Shown: in pieces, positions 33,236-46,341 of the stretch | Layout: every line of letters starts with the position of its first letter | How positions within the stretch are numbered: the stretch's first letter is position 1 | Notes under the pieces: model-generated | Databases searched by the model: none | Told to the model about the DNA's origin: nothing | The model's input: the letters and a program-made list of their open reading frames with translations, nothing else | Position numbers and translations under genes: made by a program | Assembly: GCA_039799085.1 (NCBI GenBank) | Contig: JBDLTL010000002.1 | Coordinates: 1-57,114, forward strand | Direction of reading: 5' to 3' | Source of the DNA: Candidatus Parcubacteria bacterium | GTDB lineage: Bacteria > Patescibacteriota > Minisyncoccia > Phycocordibacterales > UBA918 | DNA: 57,114 bases

Positions 33236-34519
33236 ATGCAAAAGCTACAATGGGCAACTGTCCAGAAGAAAGTAGACGATCTTGTTCCGCAGGAAATTAA
33301 TCCTCGCAAGATCACCGACGCTCAGATGAAAGCTCTCACAGAGAGTCTGAAGAAGTTCAATCTAGTAGAGATACCAGCTATAGACGCAGATGGCACAATC
33401 CTTGCTGGTCACCAGCGTATTAAGGCACTTCAGCTCTTAGGTCGGGGTGAAGAATTAATCGACGTACGGGTACCAAACCGCAAACTCTCTGACAAAGAGT
33501 CTAAGCAATACCTCATAGGTTCAAACAAGCTCGGGGGCGACTGGAATTATGATCTCCTCAAAGCGTTCGATATGGACACTTTGTCTTTCGCTGGCTTTGA
33601 ATCAATGGAGCTAGCGAAGTTTTGGGACGAGGACAGCGCTACTAAAGAAGATGACTTCGACGTAGAAAAGGAACTAAAGAAAATCTTCACCCCTAAGACG
33701 AAACTCGGGGACGTTATTCATCTCGGGCGACATAAGCTTATTTGTGGCGACTCCACTAAACCAGAAACGCTTACTCGACTACTCGGCACTGAGCGAGCCT
33801 CGATGATCTACTCAGACCCTGTATATAACATTCAGGTGAACTATGACGGTGGAATCGGTGGTAAGAAAGAGTACGGCGGAAATGTAAATGACTCTCGTAC
33901 CTTTGAAGAATACCAGACGTTCATCAAGGATAGTCTCAGTGCCGCCCTTGCTGTATCAGAACCTAACACGCACGTCTTCTACTATTGCGACCAAATCTAT
34001 ATTGGACTGATTCAGGAGGTATATCGCTCACTGGGTATCGCAAATAAGCGAGTTTGTTTATGGCTTAAAAATTCGCAAAATCCCGTACCGAAAGTGTTTT
34101 GTAATAAGGCGTATGAGCCTGCTGTGTATGGTGTGCGAGGAAAGCCCTATCTAGCTGAGAGTATGCAGGATCTAAATGAAGTACTTAACAAAGAATTTAG
34201 TACAGGTAACGAGCTGATCACACAGGTTGATGATTTTATTGAAATATGGACCGCTAAGCGACTGTCTGCCAAAGACTACCAGCACGCCACCTCAAAACCA
34301 TTCACACTCCACGAAAAAGCGATTAAACGTTGTACCAAGCCAAATGACATTATCCTCGATAGTTTTCTTGGCTCTGGTAGTACGCTCCTAGCGGCTGAAC
34401 AGCTAGGACGACGAGTCTATGGTTGCGATTTAGAACCTCGGTTTTGCGACCTCATTATCAACCGCTTTGAAGCTATGACAGGCACCAAAGCAATCGTTGA
34501 ACGGTATGAAGAAAAGTAA
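33236..34519 (+). CDS. ParB-like nuclease domain fused to N4/N6 DNA methyltransferase
   Basis: N-terminal INPRKI...ILAGHQRIKAL (ParB/Srx motif). C-terminal SDPVYN (motif IV-like) and DSFLGSGST (motif I). Confidence 0.85.
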   Translation: MQKLQWATVQKKVDDLVPQEINPRKITDAQMKALTESLKKFNLVEIPAIDADGTILAGHQRIKALQLLGRGEELIDVRVPNRKLSDKESKQYLIGSNKLGGDWNYDLLKAFDMDTLSFAGFESMELAKFWDEDSATKEDDFDVEKELKKIFTPKTKLGDVIHLGRHKLICGDSTKPETLTRLLGTERASMIYSDPVYNIQVNYDGGIGGKKEYGGNVNDSRTFEEYQTFIKDSLSAALAVSEPNTHVFYYCDQIYIGLIQEVYRSLGIANKRVCLWLKNSQNPVPKVFCNKAYEPAVYGVRGKPYLAESMQDLNEVLNKEFSTGNELITQVDDFIEIWTAKRLSAKDYQHATSKPFTLHEKAIKRCTKPNDIILDSFLGSGSTLLAAEQLGRRVYGCDLEPRFCDLIINRFEAMTGTKAIVERYEEK

Positions 34520-34907
34520 GTCTGCTAAGCAGTTTCTTCTTGAACTGACTAAAGTACCGATTGTGCAGGTAGCGTGTGAGAAAGCTGGTCTGTCTCGTAA
34601 TACCGTCTATCGCTGGCGGAAGGAGGATAAGGAATTTGAGAAGAAAATGGATCAAGCCATCACTGATGGTGTGGCTTTAGTGAACGACATGAGCGAAAGC
34701 CAACTCCTCACCCTTATAAAAGAAAAGAACTTTCAAGCGGTACGATTTTGGCTCAATAAGCGCCACCCAGCCTACAAGGACAAGATTGAAGTAACAAGGG
34801 TAGGAACTATCGAAGAACTGACGCCCGAACAGGAAGTTACTGTGCGAAAGGCACTAGAAATGGCTCGCATTATTCCATCTAAAAAACATGATCATGATAA
34901 ACAATAA
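34506..34907 (+). CDS. Terminase small subunit-like HTH protein
   Basis: VACEKAGLSRNTVYRWRKEDKEFEKKMDQA HTH, located immediately upstream of the large terminase. Confidence 0.6.
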   Translation: MKKSKSAKQFLLELTKVPIVQVACEKAGLSRNTVYRWRKEDKEFEKKMDQAITDGVALVNDMSESQLLTLIKEKNFQAVRFWLNKRHPAYKDKIEVTRVGTIEELTPEQEVTVRKALEMARIIPSKKHDHDKQ

Positions 34908-36477
34908 CCCAATTTCAGAAGAACTATTTAACTCAATGAAGAAAGACCGTGTGGTACGGCAACAGATTATGAGTGGGAGCTTCAACTACTTCTTTCATTT
35001 CTACTTCGCTCACTACGTACAGTTTCCGACCGCTGCGTTCCAACGAGACCTTATCGGCAAGCTTGAGAATGAGCCTGACGAACACCTGTTTGTGGTGGCG
35101 TTTCGTGGGTCGGGCAAATCGACGATTGTAACGACAGCTTTTCCGATTTGGGCGATTCTCGGTAAACAAGAAAAGAAATTTGTTGTTATCTTTTGCCAGA
35201 CCCGAGTGCAAGCCAAACAGCACATGATGAATATTCGTAACGAACTAGAAAATAACCAATTACTCAAGAATGACCTCGGTCCCTTTAGTGAAGAGTCTGA
35301 CGAGTGGGGATCACATTCGATTGTGTTCTCAAACACTAAGTCTCGTATCACGGTCGCTTCGACTGAACAAAGTATTCGTGGACTTCGCCACCACCAACAT
35401 CGTCCAGATTTATTTATCTGTGATGACGTCGAGGACGTAGCCTCTACCAAAACCCGAGAGGGACGCAACAAGACCTATCAGTGGCTCACGGGTGATGTGA
35501 TACCAGCTGGTGACCAAGGCACACGACTCATAGTGATTGGTAACTTGCTCCATGAAGATTCTCTCCTCATGCGGTTGCGAGAGCGAGTCTTTAAGAAAGA
35601 ATTAGACGGAACCTTTATGTCTTGTGCAATTGCCGATGCTAAGGGAAAGTCTAATTGGCCAGGCAAATTCCCGAACGCTAAAGCTCTTGATAAAGAGCGA
35701 AAGAAAATCGGCGACGAAGTGGCATGGCAACGTGAGTATTTGCTTAATATTATTCCTGATGATGATCAGGTCATTCACCCTGATTGGATTCAGTACTATC
35801 ATGCCGACAAGTTGCCAGAAATTAATACGAAAGCCTATCGAGCGACGTATTCTGGCGTAGACTTGGCGATTTCAGTCAAAGACACGGCAGATTGTACGTC
35901 GATGGTATCGGCTCGGATTTATGGCAGGAACGAGAAACTCCGAGTTTTTATCATGCCTCAACCGTACAATCAGCGACTAACATTTCCGCAACAGGTGGAG
36001 TTGATGAAAGTCCACAAGAAGACTGTTCTTAATCGCAGTACCGATAAACTCATTATTGAAAGTGTTGGCTACCAAGACGCACTTGCTCAGATGCTTGACT
36101 CGCAAGGAGTCGATGCTGAGTCGGTAAAACCACATAACGATAAACGAACCCGACTGGCTCTTACGTCATCTATGATCCGCAATGGTACCGTTCTCTTCCC
36201 AGACAAGGGGTGCGAGCAGTTACTTCAGCAGATGATTGGGTTTGGTGTAGAAAAGCACGATGACTTAGCTGATGCATTCTCACTCCTTGTTCTCAAAATC
36301 GTTGAAGACTTTACTCATGAAAGTACTTTCCTCATGGCGTGGCTCGGTGACGGTGATATGGATGATAATGTCTTGTGGTACAACGACTACCGTGACGTTC
36401 TCCAAGACGTTGACTGCTTGCTTCCAAAAGCTAAAGAACAGATCGAGATAATTTTTACCAAGGATAGACGACGTTAA
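34888..36477 (+). CDS. Phage terminase large subunit
   Basis: Walker A VAFRGSGKST, Walker B LFICDDVED, and a C-terminal RNaseH-like nuclease region (GVDLA...DD..DA). Confidence 0.8.
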   Translation: MIMINNNPISEELFNSMKKDRVVRQQIMSGSFNYFFHFYFAHYVQFPTAAFQRDLIGKLENEPDEHLFVVAFRGSGKSTIVTTAFPIWAILGKQEKKFVVIFCQTRVQAKQHMMNIRNELENNQLLKNDLGPFSEESDEWGSHSIVFSNTKSRITVASTEQSIRGLRHHQHRPDLFICDDVEDVASTKTREGRNKTYQWLTGDVIPAGDQGTRLIVIGNLLHEDSLLMRLRERVFKKELDGTFMSCAIADAKGKSNWPGKFPNAKALDKERKKIGDEVAWQREYLLNIIPDDDQVIHPDWIQYYHADKLPEINTKAYRATYSGVDLAISVKDTADCTSMVSARIYGRNEKLRVFIMPQPYNQRLTFPQQVELMKVHKKTVLNRSTDKLIIESVGYQDALAQMLDSQGVDAESVKPHNDKRTRLALTSSMIRNGTVLFPDKGCEQLLQQMIGFGVEKHDDLADAFSLLVLKIVEDFTHESTFLMAWLGDGDMDDNVLWYNDYRDVLQDVDCLLPKAKEQIEIIFTKDRRR

Positions 36478-36553: not shown

Positions 36554-37831
36554 ATGACAGAGGTATTACAAAGCGACTATAAATACGTCCTATACGCACG
36601 TAAGTCGACCGAAGGCGATGAAAAACAAGCTCTTTCAATTGATTCACAGATTAAAGAAATGACTCAAATTGCTGAACGAGAGAAGCTCAATATTGTTGAG
36701 ATAAGACGAGAGTCTCACTCAGCTAAAGAATCAAGTCAGCGTCCTGTATTTGAGGAAATAGTACGAGATATCGATAACGGCATTTTTAATGCCGTTATCA
36801 CATGGGCTCCTGATAGACTTTCTCGTAATGCAGGCGACCTAGGCAAGCTTGTAGACCGAATGGACCAGAAGAAACTCATAACGATAAAGACTTTTGGACA
36901 AAACTTCACAAATTCACCAAGTGACAAGTTTCTCCTCATGATCTTGTGTTCGCAAGCCAAGCTCGAGAATGACAATAAAAGTATCAATGTGAAGCGTGGT
37001 ATGAGAACGAGGTGTGAGATGGGCTTGTGGCCAGCTCAGCCACCAACGGGGTACCGAAAAGTTGATGGGCGACTTGCAAAATGCGAGGTGGAAATTGATC
37101 CTGAAAGAGCTGATATTATACGGCAAGTCTTTGAAAAGATTGCCTATGAGAAATGGAGTGCTTCCAAGGTGCATGCGTGGCTTAAATACGATCTAAACTT
37201 CCGTACTTTACGTGGTTATCACTTAAGTATTGGGAATGTCTTCAAAATCATTAATAACACTTTCTACTATGGCAGATTTGAGTTCCCTCAAGGTTCTGGT
37301 ATCTGGTATGACGGCAAGCACACACCCCTTATAACCAAAGAGCTATTTGATGAGACCAGAAACTCAATCAAATCACAGGTCATAAAGTCACAAGGCAAGG
37401 AATTTGCCTTCACTCGAATGATGAAGTGTGGAGTTTGTGGATCGGGTATTACGGCTGACGAGAAATTCAAGAAACTCAAAGCTGGAGGAGTGAATCGTCA
37501 TGTCTACTATCGTTGTACCAAAGCAAAGGACAGAAGTTGCAAGAATCCAGCAATTAATGAGCCCGACTTAATTACAGCCATGACAAAAATGCTCGATACT
37601 ATCAGTCTTGATCAAGTGAAGCTAAACACCAAGCTGAATGCTGAAATTCAGAAGTTTAAGAAGCTTCAGGCGATGTTTCTAGGAAAGAAGAAGACTGAAA
37701 AGATCGAATCAATTGATGTGCGTGATTATGCAAGATTTGTACTCACTGAAGGAAGCGTACTTGAGCAGAGGTCTGTATTGGAGTGTATTAGCAGTGAATT
37801 GATTTTAAAAAATTCAATTATAAAAATTTAG
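36554..37831 (+). CDS. Large serine recombinase (integrase)
   Basis: Resolvase catalytic N-terminus YARKSTEGDEKQALSIDSQ, a recombinase domain, and a zinc ribbon CGVCGS...YYRC. Confidence 0.9.
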   Translation: MTEVLQSDYKYVLYARKSTEGDEKQALSIDSQIKEMTQIAEREKLNIVEIRRESHSAKESSQRPVFEEIVRDIDNGIFNAVITWAPDRLSRNAGDLGKLVDRMDQKKLITIKTFGQNFTNSPSDKFLLMILCSQAKLENDNKSINVKRGMRTRCEMGLWPAQPPTGYRKVDGRLAKCEVEIDPERADIIRQVFEKIAYEKWSASKVHAWLKYDLNFRTLRGYHLSIGNVFKIINNTFYYGRFEFPQGSGIWYDGKHTPLITKELFDETRNSIKSQVIKSQGKEFAFTRMMKCGVCGSGITADEKFKKLKAGGVNRHVYYRCTKAKDRSCKNPAINEPDLITAMTKMLDTISLDQVKLNTKLNAEIQKFKKLQAMFLGKKKTEKIESIDVRDYARFVLTEGSVLEQRSVLECISSELILKNSIIKI

Positions 37832-38817
37832 GTTTTCTTTTGGTAGTATTTATCCAGTTCCTTGAATATTTCAGGACTGTAATACATTTTTTTATTTTTC
37901 TTTGTGTCTAAATCTAGATACCTTGGTCTAGCATATTTGTAACCACCTATAGACTCAAGTGTCCTTTTTATGGCATGAAATTTTGGATTTGGCTTGAAAT
38001 CAATGTACCTCTCTTTACATGTTTCTTGTAACTTTTTAAAGGACAGTGGATATTTTGTCTGGAAAACATTGTCTTCTTCAACCTTTACCGGTACAGCTTT
38101 TGGATCGTCAGTATATCTAACTGACATAGCGGAGGTTGAATTACTCTTGACGAATTTAGTTTCGAGAGCCAGTCCAATATTGTGTGTCTTGCTTTCGTCC
38201 GATGGATATTTCTTTTCTTTCCGTTTAATAAAAGAGAGAATATTTTTAATCTGGATTGGAATTTTATTAAGTGAGTGACTTTCGAATTCAAATGGATGAA
38301 AGAAAGAAAGTGGCATCAAATAAAAATTGTATCTGCTCAGATCTTCTTCAAACCAGTCACGATTTATTGCTACGTAACTTCTAAGAGTTGCTGTACCAAT
38401 TTCCAACACCTTTTTACTAAATGATTTATCATCATTTGTGAAATGTACTGCGTTATCTCTGATCTCTACAAGCAACTCAATATTTTCTCGTAAGATTTTA
38501 TCCGGATTTGTTTTATCAAGTGCGGTATATATATCTATGGTTTGAGGATTGCCGCTTCGGTTAGTTGCTGGAAAAAATCTTTTCAGTACTTTGTTATCTT
38601 TAGTTCTTGTTTTCCCAGGTTTATAAATTGATTTTAGTACATTCTTGTTATCTTTTAATACTTTTGCTTTAAGAAGAAGTTCCCATGCATTTACCATTAA
38701 GATCGCAAAAGTTTCTTCACGATAATGGAAATCTGGTTTGTTGTATATTTCAATTGCTGAGACGGCAGCGGCAAGTGACTTATCAAGGAGATTCTTGTAT
38801 TTTTGTCGCTTTGCCAT
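37828..38817 (-). CDS. Uncharacterised 329-aa protein, last gene of the Type III R-M operon (N-terminus reminiscent of DUF3644; recalled, unverified)
   Basis: N-terminal AAAVSAIEIYNKPDFHYREETFAILMVNAWELLLKAK. It starts 6 nt after the res stop and overlaps the recombinase gene stop by 4 nt. Confidence 0.6.
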   Translation of the reverse strand: MAKRQKYKNLLDKSLAAAVSAIEIYNKPDFHYREETFAILMVNAWELLLKAKVLKDNKNVLKSIYKPGKTRTKDNKVLKRFFPATNRSGNPQTIDIYTALDKTNPDKILRENIELLVEIRDNAVHFTNDDKSFSKKVLEIGTATLRSYVAINRDWFEEDLSRYNFYLMPLSFFHPFEFESHSLNKIPIQIKNILSFIKRKEKKYPSDESKTHNIGLALETKFVKSNSTSAMSVRYTDDPKAVPVKVEEDNVFQTKYPLSFKKLQETCKERYIDFKPNPKFHAIKRTLESIGGYKYARPRYLDLDTKKNKKMYYSPEIFKELDKYYQKKT

Positions 38818-38822
38818 ATTTT

Positions 38823-41738
38823 TTAGAACAATTTACCTCCGGCCATAGCTTCACTAACTTTTGCCAGCTCGCAAATCTCACTTATTGAAGCATTATTACT
38901 CTTAAGACTATAGAAGTTATTTTCACCAAGTAACACGTATGACCACTCTCTACTCATTCTTTCTTCTGGTGGTAGTGAATTAGTTCGCTTCACCCAATCA
39001 ATTGTAGCAAGTTGTTTTTGCTTAACATTTTGATCATTCAGATCTTTGTCTGCTTTTGTTTCAACCAAGTAGATTTTATCTGTCGTCTTTATAATAAAAT
39101 CAGGAGAATACAAAGAAAGAAGACCGTCTGCACGAATGTATGAGATTGTTGCGAATGAGTGATAATACTCATTTACTTTAATAAGAGATTCAACATTTGA
39201 ATCTGAGTCTGCGTATTCCAGCAGGTTTTTTTCGAACTCACCTTTGTTAGACGGGTACGGTAAACGTTCGTATATAGTTTTTGCAATCTCTAGGGAGTAA
39301 TTTTCACGCATTCGAAGCTCTGTAACTTCGGAAAAATATCTCTTTTCAACTTTTGCCTCCGTAGGTTGAATTGACTGTTGCATGCTGAAAATAGCTTTAC
39401 CAATTTCCTTAACAATATGGTCTGTAATTAGACCGTTTTTAAGTAGCAGTACCTTCCAATTATTGTCTGCAAAAGGGTTAAAGTTGTCACCAAACAATCT
39501 GCTTCGAACATAACGATCTACTGTGCCAGCAATAGCTACCGTGTTTACTTGGAGAGACGGAAATACTTTATTCTTTCTCTGACTAATTCGATCAAGACGA
39601 TTTACAACGACTGAGACAATCTTTTGGAGGTATTCGTTGTAGCTTTGTGACTTAAACAATGCGCCATCTACTACATATTCTCCAAAACGTGTCTTTACTG
39701 TCATTTCTTCGGATACGAATTTTTCACCATCGGCAGCAAAAAACTTCCTCAGCTCTTCAAGAGGATACAATGTAAAAGGTTCAAGTGAAGTAACATCAAT
39801 TTCAGTCTCAACTAGTTCCTCATCAGCATCACGTACTATAAATGGCCAGAACAAGTCGTATTGAGGATAGTTTTCTCGTAGACCAACTTTGATAATGTCA
39901 CCTAGCACACCTTTACTGTCTTGAGGATCATCTCCAATCTCACCAAGTAATCCTTCTTTAAGGAGATCTTCATAGAATTGAATGAAGGCTGGGTGTTCAA
40001 TAATTGTTAAGATATCAAGATAGTTACTTGGCTCTCGTTTTTCCGAAAGAAGACGCCTACGATTATCTGCTTTGATTTCTAAAAACTCCGGCTCACGCCA
40101 CATCAAGCGAAGCCCTCGACCAATTGTTTGTTCAAGCAATATTGGGGCGGAAGAGGAGCGCAAAGGTACAACTACACAAATGTTACTTACATCAAAGCCT
40201 TCACGGAGCATAAGTACAGAAACAATAACTTTTGGATGTTCATGTTTGTCTACGTTGAAGAGTTTTTGCTTAACCTCTTTCCACTCATCTTCAGGAAGCT
40301 CTCCTTTACGGTTTGAATCAATACGCATTACATCATCATCTGAGAGACCCTCTGTTTTGAGAAAATCTTCAATAAATGGTGTCACTGTCGTATCTTCACA
40401 CATCACAAGCATCTTAGGATGTTTATTTGAAGCACCATTCTTATCCGCGGTAAAAGAGGTGAAGTGCTCCTCTAAAATACGGAGCTTGTTGAGTCCTGCA
40501 CGGAGCATCATTTTTTGTCCCTCTGACAACCCAACAACCACAGCATTTTCTCGGATAGCATTGTATTCAAGAGGTAAATCAACAAGCTCCTTTCTTTTAT
40601 CAATGACTATTGTCTTTACTAGACCACCACGGATTGCTGTCTTAAGATCAAAATCAACAATAACGTGTGGGAAATAGTGTTTTACTCGATTTTGCCCACT
40701 ACCAGTTACCTCGTACGGAGTTGCAGAAATGTCAATTTGAATAAAGCTAGATCCCTTTGAATGCGAGATAGCATTAAGACTCTTTTGCCACTCTACTTCT
40801 TTAATTTCACCATATGATTTGTTTTCATGAATGTGGTGAGCCTCATCATTCATTACCATTAAATCTGGAAGGTCTTTAAGAAATTCGATTTCCTTACCAC
40901 TTTGGTACTGCGAGTCGAGTGTGTCTAGACTATTTCCACCAGAAGTTCCTGGACGAACAGGAAAAACATCTCGAATAACACCGCCTATGTCATCCATGGG
41001 CGCACTGTCTTCAGTTATATCCTCATCAGTGATAAAGAGGTGCCAGTTTGCGATGGCAATTATTCCATCTCCAGTCACTTTTGTTCCGATTTCTTGTTTG
41101 CGAGCTACTGAGTTTTGTATAAAACCAAATATGTCATCCCGATAGCTTGGTGGTATGAAGGTCTCTCTAAATAAATATAGATCAGAGGTCTCAAAGTCAC
41201 GGTCACCAGCTGGTTTTTCTTTACCAAGATAAGCATCAAGGAGTCGCTCATACACGATGAGACCCGGGGCAACAAGAAGAAAGTTTTTTGTAAATTTACC
41301 AGTCTTTTGTTCCTCATATCGTGCGTTTAGGTATTGCCATACCAGTAATGCGTGCATGACCCACGTCTTACCAGTACCAGTTGCCATCTTTATGGCGTAT
41401 TTTGGTATCTCGTATTTCGACTTCTTGAACTCAGTCATGTCCATTTCAGACATGAGTTCAAATTCAGTAGTTTCGTATATCTCTCGTACTGACTTCACTC
41501 CGATTACTTCATGGAGATAGACCGTATTCAAGATAGCTTGTCGCTGACCTTCATGAAAGTTTGCATATCGTGTTTCAGTATGAGGAGAGGTAAACCAAAA
41601 TGTTAGTAAATCACGAGTTACAGGAGTGACTTTAGAGAGCAATTCACTATTTGCCCATGACTCATTTACCTTGTCCGTGAGTGAGCGTGCTAGCTTAAGT
41701 GGTATGTCACGTGTACCAATGTTTATTGGAGTTGCCAT
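38823..41738 (-). CDS. res: Type III restriction endonuclease Res subunit (SF2 helicase plus PD-(D/E)xK nuclease)
   Basis: MATGTGKTW (motif I), MNDEAHH (DEAH), ISATP (III), and C-terminal SPDFIIKT...YLVETKADKD nuclease motif. Confidence 0.85.
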   Translation of the reverse strand: MATPINIGTRDIPLKLARSLTDKVNESWANSELLSKVTPVTRDLLTFWFTSPHTETRYANFHEGQRQAILNTVYLHEVIGVKSVREIYETTEFELMSEMDMTEFKKSKYEIPKYAIKMATGTGKTWVMHALLVWQYLNARYEEQKTGKFTKNFLLVAPGLIVYERLLDAYLGKEKPAGDRDFETSDLYLFRETFIPPSYRDDIFGFIQNSVARKQEIGTKVTGDGIIAIANWHLFITDEDITEDSAPMDDIGGVIRDVFPVRPGTSGGNSLDTLDSQYQSGKEIEFLKDLPDLMVMNDEAHHIHENKSYGEIKEVEWQKSLNAISHSKGSSFIQIDISATPYEVTGSGQNRVKHYFPHVIVDFDLKTAIRGGLVKTIVIDKRKELVDLPLEYNAIRENAVVVGLSEGQKMMLRAGLNKLRILEEHFTSFTADKNGASNKHPKMLVMCEDTTVTPFIEDFLKTEGLSDDDVMRIDSNRKGELPEDEWKEVKQKLFNVDKHEHPKVIVSVLMLREGFDVSNICVVVPLRSSSAPILLEQTIGRGLRLMWREPEFLEIKADNRRRLLSEKREPSNYLDILTIIEHPAFIQFYEDLLKEGLLGEIGDDPQDSKGVLGDIIKVGLRENYPQYDLFWPFIVRDADEELVETEIDVTSLEPFTLYPLEELRKFFAADGEKFVSEEMTVKTRFGEYVVDGALFKSQSYNEYLQKIVSVVVNRLDRISQRKNKVFPSLQVNTVAIAGTVDRYVRSRLFGDNFNPFADNNWKVLLLKNGLITDHIVKEIGKAIFSMQQSIQPTEAKVEKRYFSEVTELRMRENYSLEIAKTIYERLPYPSNKGEFEKNLLEYADSDSNVESLIKVNEYYHSFATISYIRADGLLSLYSPDFIIKTTDKIYLVETKADKDLNDQNVKQKQLATIDWVKRTNSLPPEERMSREWSYVLLGENNFYSLKSNNASISEICELAKVSEAMAGGKLF

Positions 41739-41740
41739 AT

Positions 41741-43612
41741 CTATACTTTCTTAATTACGACACTTTCAAACCCAAATACATCAACTGCCTTAACGCATAC
41801 CGTACGGTCTTCTTTTTTCGGAACGAGAAAATCCACCTCATAAAGAACTCTCATAGAGTCTCCATCTTTTTCAGTATTTCCACGGTAATCTTGCCAGCGA
41901 CTTCGGAAAGTTACTCCGTCGTAGTCAGGATCAATGCTCCAATACTCAATGAGTGCCAATGAGTCTTCCGCAAGGATGTCTGATAGCTTTTCTTTATCCT
42001 TCTCATCAAGTGGCAAAATGTCTGCAGATAGAAGGGCGTAATAATCCAACGCAACTTTAATTCGTTCATCATCTCCATGATCACCTTCAGTTTTTTCAAT
42101 AGATTTTAGTACGAGATATTGAGGAGTAGAGAATCGAATTTTGCCACTATCGATAAGCTTTTTGTAACTAGCTTTTGTTTTAAGACGATCAATAAGGTCT
42201 GGAGGTATTACTGCCACATCGAGATTCTCATCATCAAGAGAACCCTTAGCATCTACAATGTCATGTGAAAAGTTCCAGCCAAGCACTACCACTTTTCGCC
42301 AACCACCCATGAATGTATTTCGTAATTCCTGTGCTTTCTTGAGTGTTGAAAGACCAGTTACTTTATTTGGCGAATCAACGTACACGAGTGTTTTTGATTC
42401 CTTGATGTATCCAAGATTTCGTTGACTTGATTCAGAGTCAGGGAAAGGAATCGCACCATATAGTTGCATTACCACTTGTGACAAGTCACCGATACGTTTA
42501 AATAACTTACTTCCAGCAATTGCTTCTTTTTGATAGTCACCGACTGATTGGTATAGAAAAGGTTTTGCATTTTGATCTATAAGTCGTTTTCGTGTGACCA
42601 TGCAAGCAGGTTTACCAAGATCGGACATTATCCATTTACGTCCAAGTCTTTCAGCAACAGCTCCAGTTGTACCCGAGCCCATAAAAAAGTCTGCCACAAC
42701 ACCACCTTCAGGGCATGATGAATCAATGATCCTTTGAAGTAACTTCTCGGGCTTCTGGGTATTATAGTTTACGAGTTCATTTCTAGACTTTACGTGACCT
42801 ATGGTCCATACATCATCAGATAATTTTGTATCACTCTTTAAATACTCCGCTTTATCACTATTGAATCCTGCAGCGTACTTGCTTCTATTTATCGTGCCCT
42901 CAGCATATTTCTCTCGAACGTACTCTGAACCGGAATTAAAATAAAAATTGTTTGCATTCTTTGCGTATCGGAATATGTTGTCATGTTTTCGTGGGAAAAA
43001 CGATTGCGTTACAGACATCGAGGGATAATGCCATATGATTTCGTTGATGAAATTTTCCTTGCCAAAAATTTCATCCAACAAAATTTTTGCATAATGTCCG
43101 ACATGCCAATCAATATGTACATATATTGATCCAGTGTCAGAAAGTAACTCTTTCATCAATGCAAGACGAGGATATAACATTTTAAGATAGGAAACAGTAC
43201 CGTCTTTCCATGTGTCTGAATATGCGAATTGTTCAATTACTGTTGGCTTTTGTTCAAGATCAGCGCCTGGAAGTACCACCTTTGAACGATAATCAGCTTT
43301 TGAGTCGAATGGAGGATCGATATAGATGAGATCAATCTTACCTCGCATTGAAGGCAGGCCAGTGGCAGGATCGCCAGCGAGGAGTGATTGCATCACTAAA
43401 AGATTGTCACCATAGACGAGTCGGTTCATCCAATCTGAAAATTGCGGAACCTCACCCATGAACATTCCTGCCGTTTCTTTTGACGGAAGTACCAGCTCGT
43501 TTGTCTGCAGACCAAGCTTGTTTGTGCTTGAGAGTCGCTCAAGTATCTCCTCAACTTCTTTTCGTCCATCTGCGACAATCTTTGGAAGTTCTTCTATCAA
43601 TGATTTTTTCAT
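41741..43612 (-). CDS. mod: Type III Mod DNA methyltransferase (beta-class N6-adenine)
   Basis: [10 protein letters not shown] (motif IV) followed by [21 protein letters not shown] (motif I). It ends 3 nt upstream of res. Confidence 0.85.
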
Positions 43613-43614
43613 AT

Positions 43615-43821
43615 TTATTTCAAAAGCTCGGCGGCTGTGACCCCAAGTACTTTGGCTAAGCTGGTAATTGTTGAAAGAGTAGGGTTTGTCTTGCCGTTCT
43701 CAATGTTGCTCACGAACGATTTATCTACACCAATTAGCTCGGCTAGCTGACTCTGGGTAATATTCTTATTAGCACGAAGCGTTTTAAGATTAGTACCCAG
43801 TTTTTTTGACTCCTCTTGCAT
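43615..43821 (-). CDS. XRE-family HTH protein, probable R-M controller (C) protein
   Basis: 68 aa with [32 protein letters not shown]. Its stop lies 3 nt before the mod start. Confidence 0.75.
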
Positions 43822-43868
43822 AGACAGAGTCTACCACAGTTAGTTGTATTAAACTACAACTTGTCTAC
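43821..43868. promoter_or_regulatory. Nested palindromes at the C-gene start (candidate C-boxes/operator)
   Basis: tagac-aga-gtcta (43821-43833), gttgta-ttaaac-tacaac (43843-43860) and gtctac (43863-43868). Confidence 0.45.
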
Positions 43869-43892
43869 ATGGTTTACCTCAGAAAAAAGTTG

Positions 43893-43898
43893 TATAAT
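43893..43898 (+). promoter_or_regulatory. -10 box (TATAAT) for the retron-like non-coding transcript
   Basis: A consensus TATAAT preceded by TG. It is followed within 4-8 nt by the a1 repeat. Confidence 0.5.
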
Positions 43899-43901
43899 TT
43901 C

Positions 43902-44095
43902 ATTGCTTACAAATAGAGCCACCTTTGTTTTTGTCTTTTAATCAAAAAGACTTCAGGGTAAAGACAGTAAGACCTGTTAATGCGTAACTGATGAGCTCCG
44001 CTCGACAGGTACGCACCACCAGTTAGTACCACCTTTGCTTTGTCCCTTGAGAGGTAGGTAGTCGAATACCAACAATAACAAAATTTGTAAGTAAT
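43902..44095 (+). ncRNA. Candidate retron msr-msd non-coding RNA
   Basis: a1 attgcttacaaat (43902-43914) pairs with a2 atttgtaagtaat (44083-44095), giving 13 bp with one G-U. AGAGC follows a1 directly. There is an internal 7-bp hairpin at 43933-43951, no credible ORF, and the region lies 5-prime of the RT gene. Confidence 0.45.
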
Positions 44096-44206
44096 CTGAG
44101 GTGGCCCCGTTATTGTCCACTTCAAAATAGTCACTATGGAATTAATTATTTCATTGTTGCTTATTTGGCTTATCGCAAGAGAAACCAAATAGGGACTAAG
44201 ACCTTA

Positions 44207-45088
44207 ATGGATAAAGTAGATATTTTTGCATCGAAACAATCCTTACTAAATCTCCTAGGCATTAGAGACAATTTTTTATATTCTGACTTTGCAAGTAAGT
44301 ATTCCGAAAGGGATTTTCCCAAAAAGAATGGTGGTGTAAGAAAAATTAAGCCACCAGCAAAACGCCTCAAAACTCTTCAAAGAGAGATTCTCGATAAAAT
44401 ATTAGTACATACAGATCAACTGGATTGCGTGTACGGCCTTTCAAAAGCAAGAGATTTAAAAGCAAACGCTTTATTACACATAAAAAGTTCTGATCACTTT
44501 TTATTAAATCTTGATATAGAAAACTTTTTTCCTAGTTTAAGTCGAAAAAGAGTTCTTAATCTATTTCGACAAATTGGCTTTTCAAAAGAAAATGCAACTA
44601 TACTCACAAAGTTTAGTACTGTTGATAATTCATTACCTCAAGGCGCTCCTACTAGCCCTTATTTAGCGTCTCTAGCCTGTCAGAAAATGGACAGAAAACT
44701 ATATAACTACTGTCGTAGGAGAAACCTAATTTATTCAAGGTACTTTGATGATATTAGTATTTCAGGGGAGGTTGTTACTGAATCCAATGTTCAGGATATT
44801 AAGAATATGATCTCTGATTCTGGACTGACTTGTAATGAACAGAAAACTCATTTGTACTCATCTCTTGATAAGGAAAAGATAATTAATGGGGTCTTGATCA
44901 AGTCAGGAGCACTGTCTGTTCCAGAGCCTTACAAATCAGAGATAGAAGCCTGCTACAAGAAATATGTTTCTGAAAAGACTCTACAGTTGCAGAGAATATA
45001 TAAAGGTAAGATTGGTTTTTACATTTATATCAACAGAAAAGAAGCTCTTCTATTTGAAAAGGGTCTTAAAAATAAATACGGTGTTTAG
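44207..45088 (+). CDS. Retron-type reverse transcriptase
   Basis: GGVRKIKPPAKRLKTLQREI (RT1), VYGLSKARDLKANALLH (the NAxxH signature), LNLDIENFFPS (RT3), LPQGAPTSPYLAS (RT4), YSRYFDDISISG (RT5) and IINGVLIKSG at the VTG position. ATG 44207 is preferred over TTG 44165. Confidence 0.8.
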   Translation: MDKVDIFASKQSLLNLLGIRDNFLYSDFASKYSERDFPKKNGGVRKIKPPAKRLKTLQREILDKILVHTDQLDCVYGLSKARDLKANALLHIKSSDHFLLNLDIENFFPSLSRKRVLNLFRQIGFSKENATILTKFSTVDNSLPQGAPTSPYLASLACQKMDRKLYNYCRRRNLIYSRYFDDISISGEVVTESNVQDIKNMISDSGLTCNEQKTHLYSSLDKEKIINGVLIKSGALSVPEPYKSEIEACYKKYVSEKTLQLQRIYKGKIGFYIYINRKEALLFEKGLKNKYGV

Positions 45089-45131
45089 GTTTGATTTGAG
45101 CCTTCTCGAGTGCTCGAACCTGCTCTCTCTT

Positions 45132-45206
45132 TGGTGATCCTACGGAGAATCGAACTCCGATTTCCAGGATGAAAACCTGGCGTCCTGACCGTTAGACGAT
45201 AGGACC
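45132..45206 (-). tRNA. tRNA-Glu (anticodon TTC), CCA encoded
   Basis: Manual cloverleaf: GGTCCTA TC GTCT AACGGTCA GGAC G CCAGG TTTTCAT CCTGG AAAT CGGAG TTCGATT CTCCG TAGGATC A CCA. Confidence 0.9.
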
Positions 45207-45670
45207 AAAAATGCCGTGTGACATTCCGCCAGCCAGAGCATGTCTGGGACCTGACTCGTTTTGCAGGGCGGTAGTGCTTGCCAGCATGTCCGCAAAACGT
45301 GACCGAAATAATAGCAGACTTTTTAAAAAATGCTAGTCCTGTGACTTTTAAACAGGGAAGTTACCAGCTACTTTAGGCTTGGTGCTATACTGACAAAGTA
45401 TCGATTTGAGCCTAAAAATAAGCTTTAAATCAGACTTTCTCACTAATATTTTTCCACCTAGTTACACCCACGGTTTTCCTCATAGTTATACCTATGTTAT
45501 GCACAGAGTTGTGCACATTTGCTCTTTTCAGGGCTATTTTTGTATGTATTGACTATTTTTACCCATATGAGACCCTAGTAGTAGGTTTGCGCGGTGGTGA
45601 AGTATGTTAATACTCAAGTCCGAGGCTACGGACAAATGCGCGCAGACCGAAGCTCTACGTTGTACAAAGC

Positions 45671-45694
45671 AAAAGCGCCCTACGGGGCGCTTTT
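45671..45694 (-). terminator. Terminator of the methyltransferase/trxB operon
   Basis: aaaagcgccc / gggcgctttt stem with loop tacg. Confidence 0.75.
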
Positions 45695-45705
45695 GTGTTT
45701 TTGGT

Positions 45706-46341
45706 TTATGGAAGCTGTACGATATACCATCGCCAGATGGCTTTTGAGTGGTAGCCATCCATTACTCCTGACTTTACTATTTTCCAATTTCGCTTTTTTA
45801 GAATTGCACGTTGTTCTTCTTCACTAAGAATCGTTACATGTCTCGTGTCGTCTTCGTATACACCCGGATGACCAAAGGGGAGTGAAATGACGCCAATGGA
45901 TTGGGGTTTACAGAGAGATTCAAGGTTGGTAAAAGTCTCGTCCCAAAGCTCAAACGGTATGTGATGGAGGGTCGATTGGCACCAAAAGCCATCGTACTTT
46001 TTCTTAGGTAGAGAATCTCCGTCTGCTATATTTCCTTTTGAAAAAGAGAGCTGAGGATATCGACGCTTTGCTATCTTCAGGAATGATTTGCTGATATCAA
46101 CGCCTTCATATTTGAGGTTTCTTCCCATACCTAGAAATAGGGGGACATGAATACCAGATGCACAACCGATATCAAGAATGCGACCCTTTTCCGGCCATAG
46201 CTTTACCGCTTTTGCAAATGTATCTTCGTGGTAGAAAGCATTTGTTTTTTGGGTTGTCCAAATAGAAAAATACTTATCGTAGAATTTTTCTGTTTCTTTT
46301 ATTTTCTTAGTGTGCGCGGAGCGTAACATAGATGTCTTCAA
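45706..46341 (-). CDS. Class I SAM-dependent methyltransferase
   Basis: ILDIGCASGIH motif I. It overlaps the 3-prime end of trxB by 35 nt (23 nt if it starts at 46329). Confidence 0.75.
   Translation of the reverse strand: MKTSMLRSAHTKKIKETEKFYDKYFSIWTTQKTNAFYHEDTFAKAVKLWPEKGRILDIGCASGIHVPLFLGMGRNLKYEGVDISKSFLKIAKRRYPQLSFSKGNIADGDSLPKKKYDGFWCQSTLHHIPFELWDETFTNLESLCKPQSIGVISLPFGHPGVYEDDTRHVTILSEEEQRAILKKRNWKIVKSGVMDGYHSKAIWRWYIVQLP

Follow-up and report, generated by a model that had tools for sequence, protein, structure and literature searches.

The element considered here occupies positions 43893-45088 of a 57,114-nucleotide stretch of Candidatus Parcubacteria DNA (GenBank assembly GCA_039799085.1, contig JBDLTL010000002.1, positions 1 to 57,114), referred to below as the window. 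It is a cassette made of one promoter, a structured RNA, an 18-codon gene for a hydrophobic peptide (the mini-ORF, for open reading frame) and a reverse transcriptase (RT) gene whose start codon is buried by the RNA; all of these parts lie on the forward (+) strand. A preliminary description, made from the sequence of the window and a list of its ORFs, had called the locus retron-like. The feature is real, and that call is correct in substance and wrong in several details. The analysis established a retron-clade RT, a conserved promoter, co-varying helices, a long hairpin of variable sequence, a coding mini-ORF, the masking of both start codons and the lack of a conserved partner gene. For the comparison, 117 loci were collected. 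Twenty of these (the window and 19 relatives) were aligned and folded, and three loci fetched later (L114-L116), in which pairings were judged by eye, brought the family loci to 23. Residue conservation in the RT was read from 33 aligned relatives.

The RT gene (44207-45088) encodes 293 amino acids. As described before, it carries no fused domain, Pfam RVT_1 being its sole match. Abi (abortive infection) RTs, the UG/DRT (unknown group/defence-associated RT) families, diversity-generating retroelement (DGR) RTs and group II intron RTs had been named as classes to which it might turn out to belong; profiles placed it with the retrons instead. The best 25 of 68 matching PADLOC families were all retron RT models, the top one with an E-value of 4.6e-65. 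The highest bit scores were those of RT_III-A (218 and 212), RT_II-A (205) and RT_VI (195), the last of which aligned almost end to end (positions 7-274 of 279, 96% of the model). The same ranking was obtained for all 33 aligned relatives, each of which matches retron RT models. The NCBIfam model retron_St85_RT gave 179 bits, below its cutoff of 235, and the NCBIfam Drt2, Drt3 and group II models matched weakly (E=1e-10 to 1e-13; Drt2, E=2e-10). When a profile of the family was compared with solved structures, the Ec86 RT was the best match over its full length (E=6.5e-50), followed by Ec67, Ec83 and Ec78. Judged by these profiles, the window RT is a retron-clade RT claimed by no single type profile. 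Two motifs pointed out earlier were borne out by the relatives: in the region X motif NALLH (residues 87-91) N87 and H91 are invariant and the Ala is kept in 31 of 33, and the Y, D and D of YFDD are invariant as well. The RT family comprises about 58 proteins that are at least 41% identical, nearly all unnamed. Its members come from Patescibacteria metagenome-assembled genomes (Nomurabacteria, Paceibacterota and 'Saccharibacteria' bins) and from groundwater and soil metagenomes; the one exception is encoded on a 3-kb contig that was binned as Rhizobiaceae. Viral contigs yielded no relative of the RT.

Upstream of the RT lies a conserved non-coding element of ~300 nt (43905-44206), which extends from the −10 box up to the RT start. 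Its DNA identity among relatives is 72-87%, where the identity of the RT proteins is merely 50-82%. An nhmmer profile of this RNA matched always, and only, upstream of RTs that are at least 41% identical. DNA similarity between the window and locus L107, which has different flanks, begins at 43892 and stops at 45081. These limits correspond to the −10 box and the RT stop, so what is inherited as a unit is precisely the promoter, the RNA and the RT. The cassette limits given in the preliminary description agree with this; its estimate of ~190 nt for the RNA does not hold, since the RNA is ~300 nt long and continues past the second arm of the terminal repeat. A search of Rfam with E-values up to 10 returned no family for the cassette RNA, just the neighbouring tRNA and chance matches. 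More distant Patescibacteria RTs, at 35-41% identity (L008-L017, L043, L055 and L064), are stand-alone genes of 304-333 amino acids when taken as ORFs with unrefined start codons. Their neighbours are variable and partly housekeeping-looking, and most of their upstream stretches hold no long ORF. Neither similarity to the cassette RNA by nhmmer nor a mini-ORF was found with RTs in this identity range, and the upstream region of L117 (39%) is unrelated.

The TATAAT box at 43893-43898, noticed previously as a −10 element, has a TAtAAT-like hexamer at the same place in 20 of 20 aligned loci. In the relatives it mostly takes the extended form TGnTATAAT, and most loci have a G 7-8 nt downstream. 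A simple promoter scan did not list the box because there is no −35 element. Transcription is presumed to start at G43905, and the transcribed portion of the first repeat arm is then probably 43905-43914. The conservation of this promoter points to a single transcript that would carry the RNA, the mini-ORF and the RT.

The two arms of the terminal inverted repeat, a1 (43902-43914) and a2 (44083-44095), are complementary at 12 of 13 positions. Because MAFFT mis-registers a1/a2, the 5′ CCACC box and a hairpin termed H5 below, pair counts from the alignment were not used for a1/a2 or the CCACC box. We used instead an alignment-free cognate test, in which a segment is assessed as duplex partner of its own locus versus other loci. 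Two of three negative controls of this test were not significant and the third gave p=0.02 at negligible energies (−2.4 vs −1.9 kcal/mol). For a1/a2 the energies were −12.3 kcal/mol within and −7.7 kcal/mol between loci (permutation p≤0.0002). Duplexes of 7-14 bp form within the own locus in 20 of 20 aligned loci, with compensatory change; in L036 and L038 the two arms have entirely different sequences and are still complementary, and the same pairing was seen by eye in L114-L116. The repeat noted earlier in the window is thus a co-varying pair that is kept in homologous loci.

Inside this repeat, an A-rich linker leads from a1 to the 5′ CCACC box (cc5, 43918-43923), one of two partners of a GGTGG box located further downstream. 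It is followed by an msr-like hairpin, H3, with 7 bp (43933-43939 with 43945-43951) and the loop AATCA. This hairpin had also been reported, and it is supported by compensatory G-C to A-U changes: pairing holds in 96% of cells, with G-C as the closing pair in 13 loci, A-U in six and G-U in one. The preliminary description had found no long msd stem. The segment 43954-44046, however, is a long imperfect hairpin (H4), present also in the minimum free energy (MFE) fold of the window, and is the candidate msd template. Its equivalent measures 87-156 nt and forms a long imperfect stem-loop in 20 of 20 folded loci (a single hairpin in 16, one internal branch in four); sequence and length vary among relatives and the interior is unalignable. 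A fold of 43895-44110 retained a1/a2, the small hairpin and the hairpin at ~43954-44046, with a z-score of −2.55. Further downstream comes H5 (44057-44070), a GGTA/TACC stem around the loop motif AGTC. The stem varies with compensation (GAUAG/CUAUC in L037, GUGUUU/AAACAC in L116), and in the loop G and T are invariant and A and C nearly so. Merely 78% of H5 cells are paired because MAFFT registers this hairpin poorly.

Three further pairings involve the sequences on either side of a2. The arm h6a (CAACAATAAC, 44072-44079) lies directly 5′ of a2, at the canonical retron template-start position, and pairs with h6b (GTTATTGT, 44109-44116) to give H6. This inverted repeat is supported by pair counts and by the cognate test: 97.5% of cells are paired, six of eight pairs show compensatory changes, and own and foreign energies are −8.8 and −6.2 kcal/mol (p≤0.0002). 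The GGTGG box (TGAGGTGG, 44097-44104), whose core T, G and G are invariant, can pair either with cc5 or with a 3′ CCAC box (cc3, CCACTTCA, 44117-44124). The former duplex is stronger with the own locus (−12.9 vs −11.0 kcal/mol, p≤0.0002) and has compensatory variants: CCAUC/GAUGG in L002 and L036, CCACU/AGUGG in L007 and AAUCACACA/UGUGUGAUU in L115. The latter has 99% of cells paired and one compensatory pair (−11.1 vs −9.4 kcal/mol, p≤0.0004). Since a1/a2, cc5/GGTGG, GGTGG/cc3 and H6 cross one another, they must represent either alternative states or pseudoknots. The idea that H6 and GGTGG/cc3 form an H-type pseudoknot was rejected by reasoning as sterically implausible, as the connecting loop would have 0-1 nt. 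Pairing of h6a with the core of the mini-ORF showed no co-variation (p=0.68), and pairing of the invariant second TTGAGAGGT box of the relatives with cc3 gave no signal (p=0.81), in a comparison that is poorly testable when one side never varies.

The two start codons downstream are covered by separate structures. RNAalifold proposed a long-range helix, H7, which was supported by two tests. In the relatives, 5′-UUGUCC-U-UUGAG-AGA-UUAGUCCC-3′ pairs with 5′-GGGACUAA-GAC-CUCAG-U-GGAUAA-3′. The first strand is made of the first of two boxes and the spacer at the 3′ foot of H4; the second spans the stop region of the mini-ORF and the start codon of the RT with the codons after it. In the window this 3′ strand is found at 44192-44220 (GGGACTAA, GACCTTA, ATG and codons 2-5) and covers the translation-initiation region of the RT. 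H7 has 95% of cells paired vs 18-55% in slid controls, and all four pairs of its inner helix are compensatory. The energies are −15.3 kcal/mol with the own and −9.0 kcal/mol with foreign loci (p≤0.0002), individual loci carry perfect but differing cores of 8-10 bp, and in L115 a matching insertion is present in both strands. In six relatives H7 is the helix that closes the 3′ domain of the full-length MFE fold, and it does so in the window in a shifted register. The near-invariance of the non-coding sequences CTAAGACCTCAGTGGATAA and TTGTCC is attributed to this pairing.

The preliminary description had seen no credible ORF in 43822-44206. A conserved one is located at 44136-44192 and consists of 18 codons and TAG; it encodes MELIISLLLIWLIARETK, a candidate small hydrophobic effector and/or coupling leader. 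The mini-ORF begins with ATG in 23 of 23 family loci and always lies between cc3 and the RT. It encodes 16-23 amino acids, its indels are multiples of three, and its stop positions differ. Pairwise differences at codon positions 1, 2 and 3 amount to 0.41, 0.19 and 0.52, T occupies position 2 in 60% of codons, and changes in Leu codons are synonymous. Within the 57 kb of the window the peptide motif is present a single time, and in all six frames of the 117 loci it was found only upstream of the RT, apart from one stray match. Five mini-ORF peptides had no match in Pfam. The AUG is predicted to be sequestered by a local hairpin, H9 (44129-44161), in which AUGGAAU pairs with AUUUCAU in codons 5-7. 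H9 is predicted in most loci and is more stable with the own sequence (−7.6 vs −5.1 kcal/mol, p≤0.0002); its changes affect codons in one arm and the leader in the opposite arm (L111, L004 and L034). A lineage with 32%-identical RTs (L023 at ~5778, L079 at 1048 and L080 at 5117) has a 33-amino acid ORF directly upstream of the RT. The first 20 residues of this ORF (MDVFQLLVILLILKELNKLL) match the mini-ORF consensus, and the lineage has its own 12-bp a1/a2 (ACATTCATAAAG/CTTTATGAATGT) in an RNA that is otherwise unalignable. No Shine-Dalgarno-like sequence was seen upstream of 11 inspected gene starts between 37.8 and 51.2 kb of the window, including those of ftsZ and ftsA, and the host genome appears to initiate translation without such pairing. 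With genes in this genome lacking these sites, a missing Shine-Dalgarno sequence at the mini-ORF is uninformative. The mini-ORF is probably translated and selected as a peptide.

Of the systems described so far, this arrangement is most reminiscent of type VI retrons (Retron-Vpa2, Retron-Eco12 and Retron-Sen3). These are SP-HTH-RT operons (SP, a small helical protein encoded between the non-coding RNA and the RT; HTH, helix-turn-helix) whose RTs form a monophyletic lineage (RT clade 3). They have a hybrid RNA, in which one structured transcript carries msr-msd along with the coding region for a small toxin with a hydrophobic core (bioRxiv 10.1101/2025.10.22.683967; 10.64898/2026.04.27.721009). 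The ribosome-binding site and AUG of the toxin lie within stem-loops and the template is a long stem-loop with a variable centre; in Retron-Vpa2, phage-induced msDNA (multicopy single-stranded DNA) de-represses translation of the toxin, and in the Sen3 lineage the long stem-loop has at its 3′ end the repeat IR1, which pairs with IR2 just past the toxin stop (same two preprints). The window cassette shares with them a small hydrophobic ORF and an msr/msd-like RNA upstream of the RT, here presumably on a single transcript, together with a masked start of the candidate effector. Further common points are a long stem-loop whose centre is not conserved, a long-range pairing (IR1-IR2 in type VI, H7 in the cassette), short direct repeats that are conserved and a small RT of about 280-300 amino acids; an XRE-type HTH gene stands beside the window copy. 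There are differences as well. The peptide has 16-23 residues (33 in the L079 lineage) whereas type VI SPs have 55-79; the long-range helix covers the RT start codon itself; and the hosts are Patescibacteria only. Type VI HTH proteins (cl2_1, Cro/C1-type) have 91-110 amino acids and are encoded upstream of or overlapping the RT on the same strand, whereas in the cassette the peptide ORF and the RT have no HTH gene between them, and in 20 of 23 loci such a gene is missing altogether. The HTH is also absent from about 22% of the type VI entries published. Mestre-729, the only type VI retron from the Candidate Phyla Radiation (CPR) in the Khan census, was considered as a relative and rejected, its predicted non-coding RNA being without sequence similarity to any locus here.

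Taken together, we think it reasonably likely that 43893-45088 is a compact, autonomous retron-family cassette of Patescibacteria, built like a miniature type VI 'hybrid RNA' retron. The classical msr-msd-RT scheme suggested for the locus thus stands as far as the retron-like core is concerned, but the architecture is nearer to the type VI hybrid RNA. From sequence, the cassette looks like a CPR-specific minimal variant of the retron/hybrid-RNA theme, new as a variant, and like a regulator-less relative of type VI; membership in type VI is a candidate assignment that reflects likeness in design only. The analogy also suggests a toxin as the function of the peptide, for which we see slightly less than an even chance.

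In the mechanism that we propose, one transcript would begin at about G43905, the first base of a1 that is transcribed. Its first ~190 nt would fold into an msr/msd-like structure made of the a1/a2 helix, the small conserved hairpin, the long variable template hairpin and the conserved 3′ module, and the same RNA would next encode the hydrophobic peptide of 16-23 amino acids and then the RT. The mini-ORF AUG would be masked by the local hairpin and the RT start by a long-range helix of 19-20 bp, which joins the 3′ foot of the template hairpin to sequence that starts at the mini-ORF stop codon. The RT would bind the RNA and copy the hairpin region into cDNA, starting near a2. H7 could then be opened by reverse transcription through the foot of H4, or by a ribosome that terminates on the mini-ORF. 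By analogy with Retron-Vpa2, the peptide would be a growth-arresting effector whose translation is gated by RNA and cDNA and released when cDNA accumulates. The synthesis of cDNA, its start site, the toxicity of the peptide and a role in defence are what we infer from the architecture. In its boldest form the proposal would make this the smallest retron design yet: two genes on a single transcript, with a membrane-active peptide of 16-23 residues within the retron RNA as sole effector, three co-varying and mutually exclusive pairings that together with cDNA synthesis decide on translation of peptide and RT, no HTH antitoxin, priming without a canonical branching G, and a place outside the 13 described types. 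We offer this full version tentatively and regard it as rather unlikely to hold in every part.

Several observations weigh against reading the cassette as a miniature type VI retron. Retrons are generally recognized by an RT of the retron clade with NAxxH, an a1/a2 repeat of >8 bp, an msr with 1-3 hairpins, an msd stem-loop, a branching G, msDNA joined to RNA by a 2′-5′ bond, and an effector gene or fused domain that makes the system tripartite (Mestre et al. 2020, PMC7736814; Khan et al. 2024, PMC10849725). The cassette has the RT clade by profiles, NAxxH, a1/a2 of >8 bp, the msr hairpin H3 and the msd stem-loop H4; it lacks the VTG triplet and a conserved branching G inside a1 with an opposing G before a2. 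The window sequence IINGVLI does align with KVTGLVI of the Ec86 RT, as had been proposed, but the triplet is replaced by I-N-G in the window and by (I/L/V)-N-(G/S/N) in the family, with G in 18, S in 11 and N in four of 33 relatives. Similarly, the Gs that had been put forward for branching, at 43916 and 43918, do occur in the window, but in 13 of 23 loci the stretch from a1 to CCACC consists of A and T alone, and no conserved G was found 5′ of a2 across loci. With no conserved G at the inner end of a1/a2, no site for canonical 2′-OH priming can be pointed to; use of its own G (AGAG after a1) is conceivable for the window but draws no support from the comparison. Full-length MFE folds of relatives do not contain a1/a2, and its crossing with H6 and with cc5/GGTGG leaves the initiating conformation ambiguous. 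The III-A and II-A models score slightly above the type VI model for the RT (218 bits for III-A vs 195), type VI retrons tested in E. coli made little or no baseline msDNA, and the duplex of the window with its RT start, at −10.4 kcal/mol, is weaker than the family mean of −15.3 kcal/mol. The peptide, finally, is 3-4 times shorter than type VI SPs and has ~12-13 hydrophobic residues, so that it could be a coupling leader alone.

This last point leads to the rival explanation that survives best, namely that the mini-ORF is a mere leader (upstream ORF) whose translation unwinds H7 for the RT start; the peptide would be functionless and the cassette an effector-less RT and RNA with cDNA as its sole output. 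The position of the mini-ORF stop, 6-19 nt before the RT start and in or at the H7 3′ strand, would suit such coupling, as would the RT start codon, which is mostly GTG in the family, in a genome without Shine-Dalgarno sequences before its genes; the hydrophobic stretch is, moreover, short for a membrane span. Pure coupling, however, needs no conserved peptide sequence, whereas codon position 2 is the most conserved, Leu codons change synonymously, and the motif outlasts both the RNA sequence and RT divergence to 32% identity. We therefore consider a functionless leader improbable, if the strongest of the alternatives.

A second possibility concerns the window copy rather than the family. All 19 aligned relatives, and L114 and L116, have two GTCCYTTGAGAG repeats 16-23 nt apart, whereas the window has one. 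A clean deletion of 16 nt between direct repeats of 12 nt (GTCCCTTGAGAG) accounts for this, and the single TTGAGAG box is unique to the window among the 20 aligned loci. Comparison with the two-repeat relatives shows what is left at the foot of H4 (44034-44054): a remnant of the H7 5′ strand (TTTGTCCC, 44039-44046), which can still pair with GGGACTAA (44192-44199), and the single box TTGAGAGG (44047-44054). The window may thus hold a decaying or re-wired allele that lost the proper 5′ strand for masking the RT start and is mis-regulated or inactive in an otherwise functional family, and the weakened RT-start duplex would fit. Against this, everything else is intact, namely RT, mini-ORF, a1/a2 and the remaining helices, the RT start is still buried in the full-length MFE fold by a shifted 12-bp helix (44034-44045 with 44209-44220), and L115 likewise has one box. 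Decay of the window copy is in our estimate unlikely.

A third alternative looks for the effector outside the cassette. Flanking genes vary by locus, and in an all-against-all comparison of ORFs a single neighbour recurred, a large serine recombinase, which six related loci have at a distance of no more than a few kb from the RT (36554-37831, + strand, in the window). This clustering disposed of the HTH gene, the Type III restriction-modification (R-M) system and any other neighbour as a conserved effector, and the conserved mini-ORF is the only candidate for that role. PRTase-like (III-A) or NDT-like (II-A) effector genes were absent among the neighbours in the window and at least 20 related loci. 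The HTH gene of the window encodes 68 amino acids (43615-43821, − strand); it is divergent from the cassette and abuts the start codon of mod. Even so, a canonical tripartite retron could be imagined in which msDNA is primed from G43916 or G43918 and a neighbour serves as effector or regulator, most plausibly this HTH protein, making a regular type VI retron, or else by cooperation with the Type III R-M system. The G residues directly after a1 in the window and the near end-to-end alignment of the RT_VI model are compatible with this. So are the presence of the HTH gene next to the cassette in L104 and L105 too, and its best PADLOC match, HTH_VI at 56.5 bits. That match covers only the generic HTH part, however, and the scores of capH (49.9 bits) and of R-M control-protein models (45.1 bits) are close behind. 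The protein is shorter than the 91-110 amino acids of its type VI counterparts, and its gene has the divergent orientation expected of an R-M controller, whereas type VI HTH genes sit between SP and RT on the same strand. It is present in just three of 23 loci (the window and its two closest relatives, L104 and L105), which also share mod or a remnant (the mod of one relative is truncated); like the HTH gene, the Type III genes mod and res recur in these two relatives only. The candidate branching G is missing in 13 of 23. We treat the HTH protein as an R-M controller, find a canonical tripartite retron quite improbable, and consider cross-talk between HTH protein and retron doubtful. A perfect palindrome, AGTTGTA-N6-TACAACT (43842-43861), is present in the divergent promoter region and conserved in L104 and L105; it is probably the HTH operator. 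A further half-site, AAGTTGTA (43887-43894), overlaps the retron −10 box in the window only, which would likewise speak for the tripartite reading.

Least likely is a non-retron use of the upstream RNA, such as self-priming from the 3′ arm of H6 after cleavage, DRT2-like template jumping mediated by repeats or a purely cis-regulatory leader with the template elsewhere: the missing conserved branching G, the short direct repeats (CCACC twice, TTGAGAG twice), the lack of an effector gene, as in DRT2, and the pairing by H6 of the would-be template start with RNA identical to the first cDNA bases could all be cited for it, but the RT is far nearer to retron RTs (E ~1e-50 to 1e-65) than to Drt2/Drt3 (E ~1e-10 to 1e-13), the hairpin between the repeats is non-conserved, unlike the DRT2 template, and an a1/a2 helix with a long variable stem-loop is the signature of a retron. 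DRT2 (UG2) does resemble the cassette in combining an RT with a structured upstream RNA and short RNA repeats; its RT is distantly related, and its template is conserved, repeat-bounded and protein-encoding, whereas the template candidate here is a variable hairpin.

Two other systems bear comparison with the cassette in the miniature type VI reading. Retron-Eco1 (Ec86, type II-A3) supplies the best solved-structure relative of the RT, with end-to-end alignment and a shared NAxxH, and likewise has an a1/a2 repeat that closes the RNA directly 5′ of the RT around an msr hairpin and a long msd hairpin. Unlike Retron-Eco1, the cassette has no conserved branching or opposing Gs, I-N-(G/S/N) in place of VTG, no NDT-type effector gene and ~110 further conserved nt past a2. 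The toxins of type I toxin-antitoxin systems (such as Ibs, Fst/Ldr and TisB) are very short hydrophobic peptides that end in a charged C-terminal tail, and RNA structure, both local and long-range, masks their start codon. The mini-ORF peptide resembles them in its length, hydrophobicity and charged C-terminal tail and in its RNA-masked start. In contrast to those systems, there is no antisense RNA gene here, the gate would be formed by RT and cDNA, and there is no sequence similarity (no Pfam match).

We found no paper dedicated to retrons in Patescibacteria. The RTs of these bacteria are dominated by those of DGRs, and retrons have hardly been described in them. The family would show that bacteria with reduced genomes carry a stripped-down retron, on serine-recombinase islands beside R-M systems. 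Its RNA is unusually informative, with every functional element located within ~300 nt and marked by clean co-variation, and would be a tractable model for the question posed by type VI retrons of how reverse transcription and RNA refolding gate the translation of an embedded toxin. There is practical interest, too, in a 1.2-kb unit of RT and RNA whose template hairpin is variable, for producing DNA with retrons. Should priming use a nucleotide other than G, this would alter a rule that has long been held in retron biochemistry.

Direct repeats within the window RNA were also considered. The ccacctttg repeat mentioned in the preliminary description is real in the window, where an 18-nt direct repeat connects 43914-43931 with 44024-44041, but the second copy is conserved in the nearest relatives only. 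Another direct repeat, TAAGACCT, occurs in the 5′ arm of H4 (43968-43975) and just before the RT start (44197-44204); a cDNA made from the former copy would be antisense to the latter. A general role as antisense target was not supported: the match beats shuffles solely in the window, L104 and L105, and AAGACC is found again at this place in ~8 of 20 loci.

The cassette stands at the end of a low-GC island (35-41% GC vs 43-52% in the flanks), which spans 36554-45206 and is bounded by the serine recombinase and a tRNA-Glu gene (45132-45206, − strand). Adjoining the retron within this island is a defence cluster on the − strand (37828-43821) that encodes a DUF3644 protein, Type III res (971 amino acids), mod (623 amino acids) and the XRE HTH protein; the DUF3644 protein matches the PADLOC candidate system PDC-S19 with 386 bits. 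Just beyond the recombinase, 33236-36477 encodes a second DNA methyltransferase (N6_N4_Mtase, 427 amino acids) and a 529-amino acid ORF with no match in Pfam or PADLOC. On the other side of the cassette, downstream of a methyltransferase gene, 45663-45791 (− strand) gave a weak Rfam match to STnc130 (28 bits vs a threshold of 55), which is explained by a strong GC-rich terminator hairpin (AAAAGCGCCC...GGGCGCTTTT).

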